From positions 319,659 through 351,658 of the forward strand of contig NC_018677.1 in the NCBI RefSeq assembly GCF_000300075.1: 32,000 nucleotides of DNA. The letters are read 5' to 3'. This document shows, piece by piece, positions 187 to 14,519 of this stretch. The stretch comes from Candidatus Saccharimonadota bacterium (GTDB lineage: Bacteria > Pseudomonadota > Gammaproteobacteria > Johnevansiales > Johnevansiaceae). Within the stretch, counting starts at the first letter, position 1. Each line of letters starts with the position of its first letter. The notes below the pieces were generated by a model, which was not told the DNA's origin, made no database searches, and saw nothing but the letters and a program-made list of their open reading frames with translations. The position numbers and the translations under genes were made by a program.

Positions 187-694
187 GTAAAAAAAAAGTT
201 AGTGGGTTAGTTGTTTAGTTAAAAAGAGGTTGGTGTTTTGTGGTTGTAAAATATAAAATAGTTAATTATTAGTTGTTAGATAGAAGAAAGGTTGTGTAGT
301 AGTATGTGTTGTTGTAAAAAAGTGAAAAACATGTAAAAGAAGAAAACAATAGAAAAAAGTATATAAGAAAATACTTAAAAGATGAAAAAAAAGAACGGTA
401 ATAAATCAGAAAAGAATATATGTATAACATATAAAAAAAGAAAAATAGAACATAGATTAGAACATGGTATATAGGAGATGGCATAAGAATAAACAGATTA
501 CAGAAACAGAAAGGAATAAAAATGTAAACGTAAACAGGAATCATGAATAGTTAGTTAATAGGAAGATATGGGTATGTTATTACTGAATTAAAAATAAAGA
601 ACATTTAAAGAAACATATAAAAATAAATAAGTAAAAATAAACATACACCATAAAACAAAAAAAAACAAACAAAACAGAAAAAAGATAATAAAAT

Positions 695-3244
695 ATGAAG
701 ACAAAAATAAAAAAAAACATATATAATGCAACCCCAGCAATAACACAATACCTTAGGATAAAAAACCATTATCACAAAATTTTGTTAATGTATCGTATGG
801 GTGATTTTTATGAATTTCTTTTTGAAGATGCGCACACAGCCTCTGCTTTATTAAATATTCAATTAACTAGCAAAGGAAAATATAATAATAAACGTATTCC
901 TATGGCAGGAATACCTTGTCATAGTTTAAGAACATATTTAAAACGTATTATCACAGCAGGAATATCGGTTGCTATTTGTGAACAAATAAAAACAAAAAAA
1001 ACAAAGAAAAGTAAATTGCTTGAACGAAAAGTAATTCGAGTAATTACACCAGGCACTTTATATGAAGACAGTTTATTAGATGAAAGTAAAGATAATTTGA
1101 TTATATCAATAATTCAAAAAAATAATAAATGGGGTATTTCTTGGCTAGAATTCACAACAGGTGCTTTTGGTGTTTTGGAAGTTGATAATATACACGATTT
1201 ACGTTTGGAATTAGATCGATTAAACCCTGTTGAGCTCTTAATTTCTAGATTACATAAAAAATTACCTAAACTTCCCGTACACAAATCAATAATTAAACCT
1301 ATAAGTGATATTAATTTCGATTATAACAATGCTTGTAAAGTTTTGTTTAAAAAACTAAATATAAAAAATATAAATAAAAAACTTAATGCTGGTGTTTCTG
1401 CAGCTGGTGCTATAATACAATATATAAATAATAATAAAATTTATAATTTAGCACATATTAACCATTTAATTTTTGAAAATAAAAAAGATAAGTTAAAAAT
1501 AGATCGTATTACTAAAAAACATTTAGAACTTGATGTAAATGTTAATGGCAAACAAGAAAATACTTTGTTTAGTGTTTTAAATAATACAATGACACATATG
1601 GGGAGTCGTTTATTAAAAAAATGGATTAATAACCCTATTACTAATTATGATTTAGTTTTTTCTAGACAAAAAGGCGTTGAGATTGTTTTAACAAATAATT
1701 TCATAGATATTTTACAAAAATATATAAAAAAAATTGGAGATATAGAACGTATTGTTACGAGAATATCTTTAAAAACAGCAAAGCCCTTAGATTTAATCAA
1801 ATTTAAAATTGCTTTAAACGTTTTTCCTAAACTTAAAACTTTGTTAAAGGGACTATTAATAGTAAATAAAAACAGCAAGTCTATACTAAATTATATTCAT
1901 AAAGAGATTTTTACTTTTCCCAATATTGCTTTACTTTTAGATGAAGCATTAGTCGATAATCCTCCTAACTCCTTTAGATATGGATATGTAATAAAGTCAC
2001 ATTTTAATAAAAACTTAGATAAGTTGCGTAAAATCTATACTAATTCAGAAAAGTTTATAAAAACGTTTGAAAACAAAGAAAAATTACGTACCGGAATAAT
2101 AAAATTAAAAGTTACTTATAATAAGCTTCATGGTTTGTTTATAGAAATACCTAAAGGTCGTAAACATAAATACAAAATTCCTAAAAATTATATAAGAACA
2201 AAAACATTAAAAAATTCAGAAAGATTTTATACTAGTGAATTAAAGTACTTTGAAAAACGTTTAATAGAATCAAAAGAAAAGTCAATAAAATATGAAAAAA
2301 GTATTTTTAAAAAATTAATAAAGGTTCTTGTAGGTAATATACCTTATTTTATAAAAACATCAAAATCACTAGCCACGTTGGATGTTATTACTACTTTTGC
2401 TGAAAGAGCTTTAACACTGAATTATTGCAAACCAATAATAAATAAAAACAAAATAGGCATAAAAATCATGGAGGGTAGACATCCTGTAATTGAATCTACA
2501 ACTAACCATCACTTTGTACCTAATAATTTATTTTTAAATCATAATAAAAGTATACACATTATTACAGGACCGAACATGGGTGGAAAGTCTACTTTTATCA
2601 GACAAATTGCCATTATTGTTTTATTAACATATATTGGAAGTTATGTACCTGCTAAATATGCTGAAATCGGTCCTATTGATCAAATTTTTACCAGAATAGG
2701 TGGTTATGATGATTTAAGTGCAGGAAAATCAACTTTTATGATTGAAATGCATGAAACTGCTAAAATATTAAACACCGCAACTTTTAAAAGTTTAGTACTA
2801 ATGGATGAAATAGGAAGAGGAACTAATCCTACAGAGGGTTTATGTCTCGCTTGGGCATGTTTAGAAAGAATAATACAAATTAAAGCTTTAACGTTGTTTT
2901 CTACTCATTATTTTAGTTTAACTCAAATAGCAAAAAAATTTAAACAAATAACAAACTTACACTTTAGTGCTTCCATCAAATCTAATAAAGTTAGTTATAT
3001 TTACAATATACAAAAAGGTGCTACAAACAATAGTTACAGTTCGTCGGTTGCTAGTTTGGCTAATATAGCACAAGGCGTTATAAATAAATCCAACAATCTT
3101 ATAAAGCACTTTCAAGATCATCAAAAAAGCCTAAATAAAAGACATACGTTAATGAAATATATAAAATCTTTTAAATATAAAGACTTAACACGTTATCTAA
3201 AATTTATAAAAAGTTTTTTCAAAAACCTAAAAGATATGTTTTAA
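695..3244 (+). CDS. mutS: DNA mismatch repair protein MutS
   Basis: 849 aa, similar in length to E. coli MutS. N-terminal mismatch-binding motif TPAITQYLRIK...MYRMGDFYEFLFEDA contains the Phe-x-Glu. Walker A GPNMGGKST, Walker B LVLMDEIGRGT and the STHYF motif are present. The C-terminus is diverged. Confidence 0.95.
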   Translation: MKTKIKKNIYNATPAITQYLRIKNHYHKILLMYRMGDFYEFLFEDAHTASALLNIQLTSKGKYNNKRIPMAGIPCHSLRTYLKRIITAGISVAICEQIKTKKTKKSKLLERKVIRVITPGTLYEDSLLDESKDNLIISIIQKNNKWGISWLEFTTGAFGVLEVDNIHDLRLELDRLNPVELLISRLHKKLPKLPVHKSIIKPISDINFDYNNACKVLFKKLNIKNINKKLNAGVSAAGAIIQYINNNKIYNLAHINHLIFENKKDKLKIDRITKKHLELDVNVNGKQENTLFSVLNNTMTHMGSRLLKKWINNPITNYDLVFSRQKGVEIVLTNNFIDILQKYIKKIGDIERIVTRISLKTAKPLDLIKFKIALNVFPKLKTLLKGLLIVNKNSKSILNYIHKEIFTFPNIALLLDEALVDNPPNSFRYGYVIKSHFNKNLDKLRKIYTNSEKFIKTFENKEKLRTGIIKLKVTYNKLHGLFIEIPKGRKHKYKIPKNYIRTKTLKNSERFYTSELKYFEKRLIESKEKSIKYEKSIFKKLIKVLVGNIPYFIKTSKSLATLDVITTFAERALTLNYCKPIINKNKIGIKIMEGRHPVIESTTNHHFVPNNLFLNHNKSIHIITGPNMGGKSTFIRQIAIIVLLTYIGSYVPAKYAEIGPIDQIFTRIGGYDDLSAGKSTFMIEMHETAKILNTATFKSLVLMDEIGRGTNPTEGLCLAWACLERIIQIKALTLFSTHYFSLTQIAKKFKQITNLHFSASIKSNKVSYIYNIQKGATNNSYSSSVASLANIAQGVINKSNNLIKHFQDHQKSLNKRHTLMKYIKSFKYKDLTRYLKFIKSFFKNLKDMF

Positions 3245-3636
3245 CAACTTTGTCTTATAAACTTTCCTTATTTTACAAATAACTCTTTACCACAACTAAC
3301 CACTATAGAATTTACAGTTACTATTTTTTTACAATTCTATCATCAATTTCTTAAACAACAACCTTCTTTTATAAAAACATCTACTTCAATATTCTTTTAT
3401 ATGTCATACTTCTATATACCCCATATATATCCTATCATACCAATACTTCTTACACACAGCATTTAAACTTAACAACTAACTTTTTATAAGTATAACAAAT
3501 TACATTAAACATTAATCAACCTTCTAAAGCAATAACCATTTAAATTAATGACAAATAAAAAAATCAATGTTTAAAACATACCATCAACCTTTTTAACTTT
3601 TAATATAAAAGCACAAACCTTTTCCATTTTCCTTTT

Positions 3637-3696
3637 CCCTTTCCCTTTCCCTTTCCCTTTCCCTTTCCCTTTCCCTTCCCCTTCCCCTTAATCCCC
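3637..3696. repeat. (CCCTTT)n homopyrimidine microsatellite
   Basis: Ten C3-C4 runs separated by 2-5 nt of mostly T (the last spacer is TTAAT). About 7 perfect CCCTTT units are followed by CCCTT/CCCCTT variants. The minus strand reads (AAAGGG)n. Confidence 0.95.
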
Positions 3697-3750
3697 TTTC
3701 AACCTTTTTATTTTAACCAAAAACCTTTTACCCTTTATTTTTTTTCCAAC

Positions 3751-13787: not shown

Positions 13788-13798
13788 AATATATACTT

Positions 13799-14386
13799 TT
13801 ATAACGTACCTTTGGTTGAATATAACTTGTTAGTTATACGTTTATCTTTTGTAATGGCCTTTCGTATAGAAATACCAAAAGATTTAAATATACTTTCTAT
13901 TTGATGATGTGAATTAAATCCCTTTAAAATATCTATATGTAGTGTACTTTTGCAATTGTTAACCCAACCTTTGAAAAATTCTCTAAAAAGATCAAACTTA
14001 CCTACTTTAGTCATATGTAATGATGGTCTGCCTGATAAATCAATAACTACACGTGATAAAGATTCGTCCATAGGTACATAAGAACACCCATATCTTTTAA
14101 TGCCAATTTTTTTACCTAACGCTTTTTTAAACGCTTTACCCATTGCTATTCCTATATCTTCTATAGTATGATGATGATCTATATGTGAATATACGTTTGT
14201 TTTTATAGTTAAATCTATTTGTCCATTATTTGTTATTTGATCTAACATATGTTCTAATAATTCTATTCCACATTTTATATTTATTTTACCTTGACCATCT
14301 AAATTCACATATACCCTAATTTTTGTTTCCTTTGTTTCTCGATATATATTTGCAGTCCGATATTTTTTTTTCTTATTAACAGACAT
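13799..14386 (-). CDS. hisB: Imidazoleglycerol-phosphate dehydratase (monofunctional HisB)
   Basis: 195 aa. RETKETKI.V..NLDG.G, IDHHHTIEDIGIAMG, HHQIESIFKSFG. Confidence 0.95.
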   Translation of the reverse strand: MSVNKKKKYRTANIYRETKETKIRVYVNLDGQGKINIKCGIELLEHMLDQITNNGQIDLTIKTNVYSHIDHHHTIEDIGIAMGKAFKKALGKKIGIKRYGCSYVPMDESLSRVVIDLSGRPSLHMTKVGKFDLFREFFKGWVNNCKSTLHIDILKGFNSHHQIESIFKSFGISIRKAITKDKRITNKLYSTKGTL

Positions 14387-14446
14387 ACCCTTCCCTATTC
14401 TATTCTTGTTTTTTTTTTTTATAATTTTATAATTATATCTTCTTTT

Positions 14447-14519
14447 GGCTAGATAGCTCAGATGGTAGAGCAGAGGACTGAAAATCCTTGTGTCGGTGGT
14501 TCAATTCCGCCTCTAGCCA
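14447..14519 (+). tRNA. tRNA-Phe (anticodon GAA)
   Basis: 73 nt cloverleaf. Acceptor GGCTAGA/TCTAGCC, D arm GCTC-AGATGGTA-GAGC, anticodon arm GAGGA-CTGAAAA-TCCTT, T arm GGTGG-TTCAATT-CCGCC. CCA is not encoded. Confidence 0.9.

Follow-up and report, generated by a model that had tools for sequence, protein, structure and literature searches.

The stretch of DNA analysed here (the window; 32,000 nt of NC_018677.1) is the terminal 32 kb of the chromosome of Candidatus Portiera aleyrodidarum BT-B, a whitefly endosymbiont of the Bemisia tabaci type, and the feature under study is the alternation of long tracts depleted of C or of G along its + strand. The ThrB encoded in the window is 98% identical to that of Candidatus Portiera aleyrodidarum, and alignment of the window to the final 13.9 kb of the 358,242-nt BT-B record gives 99.993% identity, both sequences stopping at the record end. 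This identity, the kb-long spacers and 59 rows of Tandem Repeats Finder (TRF) output place the window among the expanded microsatellite-rich spacers of B. tabaci Portiera. An earlier note had explained the changes of polarity by a single inversion of a segment of about 14 kb. The polarity is instead a mosaic of domains, consisting of old blocks of mostly co-oriented genes and of unconstrained, repeat-rich spacers that have grown inside or beside them, and the G/T-rich strand of each domain is the sense strand of its dominant gene direction.

For comparison, AD-CAI and PeMo (the two Portiera matches from a profile search of genome contigs with a ThrB alignment) were used as references for the ancestral gene order. 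A relative with 86% ThrB identity (ENA ERZ28624604; the 86% relative) and the Portiera of Singhiella were used as further lineages. Each stretch fetched for comparison was 21 kb or less.

Features of the window and their polarity

GC skew was calculated for each spacer from the G and C counts on the + strand, and binomial p values were derived from the same counts. The left end of the window (1–600, +) is a G/T-rich, C-depleted spacer leading from rsmH, the upstream neighbour just beyond the window start (seen in the sequences L001 and L130), to mutS; it carries heptamer arrays of GGTTGTA and GTTGAGG (TRF arrays at 23–113) and has a skew of +0.76 (G147:C20, p = 4e-25). The left polarity switch lies at about 600, where the A-rich, G-poor leader of mutS (601–694, +) begins; in a fine profile 1–600 is positive, 601–750 has a skew of −0.43 (G8:C20) and mutS itself (695–3244, +; Pfam MutS I–V), which is opposed to the local polarity, is near neutral. 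Whole-gene skew chiefly reflects G-rich first codon positions rather than neutral polarity; at fourfold degenerate (4-fold) sites the sense strand of mutS has C21:G12.

The minus domain opens with a repeat-rich spacer with heptamer and hexamer arrays (3245–5250, −), extremely depleted of G on the + strand (G43:C511, skew −0.84, p = 1e-102). It sits where the ancestral dapF, lysA and 3′ part of argH stood, and its left end is a junction with mutS specific to B. tabaci Portiera. The adjoining 5251–6264 is neutral (G118:C136, skew −0.07) because it contains an argH pseudogene relic of neutral composition (5404–5837, −), which was detected by tblastn with the ArgH of AD-CAI and of the 86% relative (E = 4.5e-13 and 2.9e-12, respectively). 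Next come tRNA-Thr(CGU) (6265–6337, +; ARAGORN and Rfam), in its ancestral place beside the permease gene as in AD-CAI and the 86% relative, and the ancestral his-thrB core, namely an AI-2E-family permease gene, thrB, hisC, hisF and hisA (6344–10887, −; open reading frames (ORFs) and Pfam domains of orthologues). The 2.3-kb hisH|hisA spacer (10888–13166, −) arose inside the his operon from an ancestral gap of 14 nt (3061–3075 of the AD-CAI stretch) and is G/T-rich on the sense (−) strand (G104:C489, skew −0.65, p = 1e-60). Behind it lie hisH and hisB (13167–14386, −; ORFs, Pfam GATase and IGPD) and a short spacer with G1:C10 (14387–14446).

The fine profile places the right switch at 14.45–15.1 kb, within a neutral cluster of tRNA-Phe, tRNA-Gln and tRNA-Thr(UGU) (14447–14702, +; ARAGORN and Rfam), which are ancestral neighbours of hisB, and of the transfer-messenger RNA (tmRNA) gene (14716–15088, −; Rfam RF00023, 106.9 bits), ancestrally beside smpB. 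The tmRNA of the window was missed by ARAGORN, which detected its orthologues in the 86% relative and AD-CAI. The unstranded tmRNA|rluD junction (15089–15297, G30:C11) is an old rearrangement common to the window and the 86% relative, AD-CAI having lspA-rluD and smpB-tmRNA.

Beyond it stands a moved ancestral block (15298–26589, +) of rluD, marC (−), ilvI, ilvH, ilvC, rpsP, rimM, rplS, hom and thrC, identified by ORFs and contiguous in AD-CAI, from which clpB has been lost. Its spacer at 16228–16590 has G60:C25. The 2.2-kb spacer that separates marC from the divergent ilvI (17236–19479, +) is specific to B. tabaci Portiera (the gap is 152 nt ancestrally and 134 nt in the 86% relative) and has a skew of +0.67 (G477:C94); in the fine profile about 230 nt beside marC are neutral, and the skew then runs from +0.7 to +1.0 up to ilvI. 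The thrC|smpB junction spacer (26590–27570, +; G219:C51, skew +0.62), the C-free part of which adjoins the 3′ end of smpB, brings together genes whose ancestral neighbourhoods were thrC-prfB and grpE-smpB-tmRNA. It is followed by the ancestral divergent pair smpB (−) and grpE (+) (27571–28634; ORFs and synteny), separated by a neutral spacer of 86 nt, and by the 3.4-kb grpE|dnaK spacer (28635–32000, +), G-rich on the sense strand (G792:C90, skew +0.80, p = 5e-141), which reaches the record end. In B. tabaci-complex genomes dnaK comes next, and Portiera records begin with dnaK by convention (PMC12911140).

Thus the depletion polarity described in the earlier note, with switches near 0.6 kb and 14.4–15.1 kb, is reproduced: the skews of the kb-long spacers are +0.6 to +0.8 or −0.65 to −0.84, and the longest runs in the window without C and without G are 292 and 369 nt, respectively. 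ORF orientations also bear out that 17 of the 20 coding sequences are co-oriented with the local polarity, mutS, the marC-family gene and smpB being opposed. The argument that two switches 14 kb apart cannot both be an origin and a terminus holds as well.

Ancestral gene order and the age of the junctions

The AD-CAI order is grpE(−), smpB(+), tmRNA(+), tRNA-Thr/Gln/Phe(−), hisB-H-A-F-C, thrB, permease(+), tRNA-Thr(−), argH, lysA, dapF(+) and nuoN-K(−), with which the gene order of PeMo agrees. The window retains tmRNA through the permease gene, tRNA-Thr and the argH relic as one ancestral block, still divergent from smpB-grpE-dnaK. This tmRNA-tRNAs-hisBHAFC-thrB-permease-tRNA-argH-lysA-dapF block is the minus domain, in which a relic is all that is left of argH, and G-depleted repeats have replaced lysA, dapF and the rest of argH. 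The plus domain on the right is a second ancestral block, the 12.5-kb rluD-to-thrC segment, inserted between tmRNA and smpB and followed by grpE-dnaK; at 91–112 kb of AD-CAI, obg-rpsT-ileS-lspA-rluD-clpB, marC(−) and ilvIHC-rpsP-rimM-rplS-hom-thrC-prfB-lysS are contiguous. AD-CAI mutS lies at 186 kb in the order alaS(−) mutS(+) lipA(−), about 85 kb from the his block, and was therefore a lone opposite-strand gene already in the ancestral order. This position also refutes a further arrangement that we considered, in which mutS stood beside dnaJ ancestrally and one dnaJ..dapF inversion produced both the mutS|dapF-remnant and the dnaJ|nuoN junctions.

In the 86% relative ilvI-marC-rluD-tmRNA-tRNAs-hisB is present, an intact argH follows the permease gene and is itself followed by aroQ, and mutS stands after hisG-rplM-rpsI-rsmH and before pheT, unlinked from the his block. 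The rsmH|mutS and tmRNA|rluD junctions are consequently old, being found in this relative too, whereas the mutS|argH-relic junction occurs only in B. tabaci Portiera. At least eight B. tabaci-complex genomes (MEAM1, MED, China 1, Asia II 3 and several run assemblies), which diverge by no more than 1.1% including the spacers, have the same order, orientation and polarity; shared order and polarity among relatives was the observation that the earlier note had named as refuting its inversion. We also sought relics of clpB, lysA, dapF, alaS, lysC and lipA/lipB in the spacers, and only those of argH (window) and lysA (86% relative, 13596–14144, behind the intact argH) were found.

One inversion would leave two junctions of equal age around one segment; as the junction ages differ, a single inversion is not seen. 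Nor do the outgroups carry a reversed segment between the same flanks with breakpoints near 0.6 and 14.4–15.1 kb: the his block of AD-CAI and PeMo is flanked by smpB-grpE and argH-lysA-dapF-nuoN, and rluD follows lspA. What stands of the inversion proposal is that the boundaries lie at or near rearrangement junctions (mutS|argH-relic at 3.2–5.4 kb and tmRNA|rluD at 15.09–15.30 kb); what falls is the single event that turned mutS and his-thrB together after the skew had been set up, because the his block has retained its ancestral orientation towards smpB-grpE-dnaK and never included mutS. In genomes of this kind a skew switch is accordingly no evidence of inversion.

Polarity in relatives and at 4-fold sites

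The same switch at the tRNA/tmRNA cluster is present in the 86% relative, where spacers on the rluD side have skews of −0.74 and −0.68 and the hisH|hisA spacer has +0.59. Spacers at homologous positions in the window and this relative cannot be aligned even at word size 9, although the divergence at 4-fold sites is only 0.18, so that spacers change by insertions and deletions far faster than 4-fold sites do; the hisH|hisA spacers of the two lineages, for instance, have the same polarity and no alignment. In Singhiella Portiera the ilvH|ilvC spacer (3.5 kb, skew +0.71) and the rimM|rplS spacer (7.2 kb, skew +0.77) have grown from ancestral gaps of 25 and 28 nt, respectively, and a further 3.5 kb beside marC has a skew of +0.74. 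In all five spacers born inside operons, across three lineages, the sense strand is the G/T-rich one (hisH|hisA of B. tabaci and of the 86% relative, grpE|dnaK of B. tabaci, and ilvH|ilvC and rimM|rplS of Singhiella). Further polarity switches were found in the stretches L164 and L166. In L164, the mutS region of the 86% relative lineage, gatB and gatA (−, 2737–5603) and hisG-rplM-rpsI-rsmH-mutS (+, 5958–12538) diverge from one point, and at 4-fold sites both groups have more C than G on their own sense strand, contrary to the usual rule.

At 4-fold sites of AD-CAI, blocks in either orientation within a span of 16 kb have more G than C on the sense strand (C23:G50 and C13:G40), the blocks of opposite polarity being 10.6 kb apart, and genes of the minority orientation near mutS show C13:G23. 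The ilv block has C59:G147, a skew about as strong as in B. tabaci. Three AD-CAI regions about 90–105 kb apart have their majority genes on the same strand of the record, from which we infer that, given two similar replichores, they cannot all be leading-strand.

Ongoing strand-asymmetric substitution

Strain alignments covering 200–32000 of the window were used to polarise changes on the tree ((MEAM1, MED), (China 1, Asia II 3, others)), and clustered events were removed. The remaining 121 changes were dominated by A:T>T:A, A:T>C:G and G:C>T:A. Both the changes among B. tabaci-complex strains and the 4-fold changes in all Portiera lineages were mostly transversions (A↔T, T>G) with few transitions, and a transversion-dominated spectrum is unusual for bacteria.

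The polarity is kept by this ongoing substitution, mainly through gain by T>G and loss by C>A on the G-rich strand, with a direction that differs between the domains and with modest statistics. On the G-rich strand of the spacers T>G exceeded A>C (14 vs 8), and C>A occurred at 7 of 494 C sites vs G>T at 6 of 2115 G sites, a fivefold higher rate per site (p = 0.005); a skew of about 0.7 is implied at equilibrium. On the B. tabaci branch, T>G:A>C at 4-fold sites was 13:1 in the ilv block (p = 7e-4) and 6:4 in the his block. Counted on the + strand, T>G:A>C was 24:6 for the plus domain against 7:9 for the minus domain (Fisher p = 0.02; binomial against the plus-domain share p = 0.0015). These numbers are small, and p = 0.02 was reached only once 4-fold sites were added, the test on spacers alone with clusters removed being under-powered (11:5 vs 3:3). 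A ratio of 7:9 against 24:6 indicates that the minus domain is not drifting towards the polarity of its flanks and is no decaying fossil.

Repeats and gene decay

The tandem arrays are mostly of period 7 and cover a minority of the spacer sequence; units in the window spacers include GGTTGTA, CAACCTA, ACTAACA, CTAACAG, GGCTAGT, TTAGCTG, GGTTGTT and AGAGGTT. Short words such as TTATTAGAGGTT are present in 7 of 8 B. tabaci spacers and in none of the spacers of the 86% relative (stretch L002). A 23-nt unit repeated three times in tandem at 5290–5361 (TAATATACGACCAGTATTAGCGG), beside the argH relic, has a normal composition, unlike the G/T-rich heptamer arrays. When the motif (TTGTWRG)x3 was scanned in metagenome and viral collections, all of the matches listed were unrelated. 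G-quadruplexes were dropped as an explanation of the depletion, since the window contains a single canonical four-run G3 motif, a (TTTCCC)n array at about 3628–3690 (minus strand).

A 142-codon ORF antisense to hisA (10247–10675, +) is most likely spurious, as a strand of such composition is poor in stop codons. The ORF of rimM (23023–23531, +) has a stop at codon 106, and homology to the 164-residue RimM of AD-CAI runs on to 23487 across several in-frame stops. The C-terminal RimM domain is a decaying remnant, and the rimM ORF of Singhiella encodes 89 residues. In the 86% relative hisA (7499–8130) consists of frameshifted fragments and is a pseudogene, hisF and hisH being intact. Some B. tabaci-complex strains, among which CP016327 was also looked at, have shortened gene calls, rluD with 238–260 residues against 309 and, in China 1 (CP016343), hisF with 238 against 257; China 1 has no marC call. 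Gene decay may be ongoing among B. tabaci Portiera strains.

What sets the direction of the asymmetry

We favour, over the direction of the replication fork and with about an even chance of being right, a coupling of the asymmetry to the direction in which each block is transcribed. A block would be transcribed with little termination between its genes, and the asymmetry would follow the direction of transcription. Lone opposite genes (mutS, marC and smpB) and their adjoining spacers would then adopt the polarity of the dominant flow, and the switches would mark points at which opposing flows part (hisB|rluD) or converge (near mutS), having been brought together by several old rearrangements rather than by one 14-kb inversion. 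Terminator-like and promoter-like sites were no commoner in the sequence than in its shuffles. The pattern expected of transcription-associated asymmetry, more G than C and more T than A on the non-template strand in both orientations, was seen in all five intra-operon spacers and in the AD-CAI blocks. The alternative raised in the earlier note, that polarity is set by the dominant gene direction, thus fits the evidence better than an inversion does, although there are contrary cases such as the Singhiella aroQ|mutS spacer and genes with more C than G on the sense strand.

Several observations weigh against a coupling to transcription. In Singhiella a 3.1-kb spacer between the co-oriented aroQ(+) and mutS(+) has a skew of −0.80, the antisense strand being G-rich, and the co-oriented hisG-rplM-rpsI-rsmH-mutS block and gatAB have more C than G on the sense strand at 4-fold sites, so that the expected pattern is contradicted at aroQ|mutS, at hisG-mutS and at gatAB. 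Lone opposite genes of the rearranged lineages are C-rich on their own sense strand (pooled 4-fold C115:G74 vs C22:G33 in AD-CAI, counts that are small and partly non-independent), which under a transcription model requires dominant antisense read-through. The point of insertion of the marC|ilvI spacer is 28 nt from marC and 97 nt from ilvI, so the spacer may lie upstream of the ilvI promoter, outside the ilvI transcript. Finally, the observed substitutions are transversions. Deamination by C>T on the exposed strand, the customary signature of transcription-associated asymmetry, was rejected as the driver, as no C>T was observed at 494 C sites of the G-rich strand and the asymmetry lies in T>G and C>A.

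A dependence on fork direction accords with the substitution spectrum and with the domain-wide reach of the effect, and we regard this explanation as rather unlikely but the strongest of the others. The domains would record the direction of forks moved by a crippled replisome (dnaQ, dnaN, dnaX, holA, holB and ssb lost, no dnaA) in which synthesis of one strand is prone to mispairs of the 8-oxoguanine type (T>G, C>A); replication would begin and end at numerous sites, perhaps with transcripts as primers and with forks that travel along with transcription, and fork direction would flip every 10–30 kb at block boundaries. Transversions are expected of errors in copying one strand, not of deamination, a reading of the spectrum that rests on what is generally known of mutT and mutM/mutY spectra. 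The effect also covers whole domains, including lone opposite genes, a spacer between divergent genes and the Singhiella aroQ|mutS spacer, which is polarised antisense. PMC3673631 lists dnaQ, dnaN, dnaX, holA, holB, mutL, ruvC and ssb as lost from B. tabaci Portiera, only dnaE, dnaB and mutS being left. Fork direction would, however, have to switch at least twice within distances of 11–14 kb and to have stayed so since before the split from the 86% relative. Moreover, the ancestral-order genome, which is described in PMC5322561 as having a normal replisome and a ‘clear GC skew’, already has opposite 4-fold polarities 10.6 kb apart. Since the 4-fold skew is about as strong in AD-CAI as in B. 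tabaci, loss of the replisome did not create the bias, which counts against this explanation. The more specific proposal that the domains are a map of fork direction, produced by multi-site replication that is primed by or moves with transcription in a chromosome without dnaA, one nascent strand gathering T>G and C>A errors, appears improbable to us; if true, the mosaic would reveal for the first time, at the level of sequence, that a bacterial endosymbiont replicates from many origins and co-directionally with transcription.

It is likewise improbable that no directional process is at work at present, the spacers having grown from local seeds or dead genes with a mild excess of G over C on the sense strand while C-free heptamers were amplified by slippage, duplication and conversion. 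The spacer at 3245–6264 does stand in for the minus-strand argH-lysA-dapF and keeps their polarity, just as the mutS|pheT spacer of L164 stands in for the minus-strand lipA and lipB. Period-7 arrays dominate, identical G/T-rich words are shared by six to seven of eight spacers, and the turnover of spacers by insertion and deletion far outpaces 4-fold change. On the other hand, a minority of the spacer sequence is covered by arrays, the same T>G excess is found at isolated point changes outside arrays and at genic 4-fold sites, C sites of the G-rich strand are lost five times faster per site than G sites, and independent new spacers are non-randomly oriented relative to gene blocks. Repeat growth that preserves composition explains some spacers, but neither the 4-fold asymmetry nor the faster loss of C.

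Selection at the RNA level is very unlikely. Rho prefers C-rich, G-poor RNA, and long untranslated stretches of operons that avoid such loading sites would keep their sense strand C-poor and G-rich, as all five operon-born spacers are; spacers in convergent and divergent positions are, however, equally polarised, and rho is not named in the available text of the Portiera genome papers. Least probable of all, with hardly any weight left to it, is the single mutS-his-thrB inversion of about 14 kb whose flipped, replication-made skew survives as a fossil: junctions do lie near both boundaries and PMC3673631 counts at least 17 inversions relative to Portiera TV in this lineage, yet the prior adjacencies rsmH|tmRNA and mutS|rluD that it requires were found nowhere (the ancestral ones being smpB|tmRNA, alaS|mutS|lipA and lspA|rluD), the junctions are unequal in age, the his block has its ancestral orientation towards grpE-dnaK, and the polarity is common to all close relatives and maintained. 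The comparison of gene orders has already refuted this inversion.

Comparison with known systems

The same genome and the same instability are the subject of the Portiera genome papers (Sloan and Moran 2013, PMC3673631; Santos-Garcia et al. 2015, PMC5322561; 2020, PMC7821994). There B. tabaci Portiera is credited with large microsatellite-rich intergenic regions (PMC3673631) and with ‘no appreciable GC skew pattern’ (PMC5322561), and the absence of genome-wide skew is attributed to rearrangement in all three. The genome, its rearrangements and its lack of global skew are therefore known already. The extreme local skew of the spacers (up to 0.8–0.9), the block-linked polarity across Aleurolobini Portiera (including Singhiella and the other relative) and its basis in transversions are not described in the available text of PMC3673631, PMC5322561, PMC7821994 and PMC12911140, a literature check that is incomplete. 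Whereas the loss of skew in B. tabaci Portiera has hitherto been read as scrambling by inversions, our data suggest that the asymmetry has not been lost, and that it is locally extreme, tied to blocks, preserved between lineages in which the spacers have been replaced completely, and sustained by an unusual spectrum of transversions. If this applies genome-wide, Portiera would be a natural system in which to separate transcription-linked from replication-linked mutation in a cell without proofreading, mismatch repair, single-stranded DNA-binding protein and most of the replisome, and the pattern would bear on how such a chromosome is copied at all.

Like the GC skew of bacterial origins and termini, the pattern has one strand rich in G and T, a sign that flips at discrete positions and a majority of genes that run with the G-rich strand. 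It differs in having at least two switches within 15 kb at block boundaries, a magnitude several times larger and no dnaA, and in that the same short-range pattern is present at 4-fold sites of ancestral-order genomes. Instead of two far-apart switches per circular chromosome, two were found 11–14 kb apart, with more in L164 and L166. Neutral polarity was independent of gene orientation for the lone genes of rearranged lineages (C115:G74), but not in AD-CAI, where genes of both orientations are G-rich on the sense strand.

Transcription-associated strand asymmetry, a bias of the non-template strand, has reportedly been described by Francino and Ochman and by Beletskii and Bhagwat. The Portiera pattern is like it in that unconstrained sites have more G than C and more T than A on the sense strand, irrespective of how the block is oriented; the differences are that T>G and C>A take the place of the classical C>T deamination and that lone opposite genes follow their domain and not their own sense strand. 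In animal mitochondrial DNA the heavy strand is G+T-rich, with a single polarity per genome that is set by the mode of replication and driven by transitions. Portiera resembles it in the magnitude of the asymmetry at unconstrained sites, in its G+T-rich strand and in its reduced replication and repair machinery, and differs from it in that its pattern is a mosaic and is driven by transversions.

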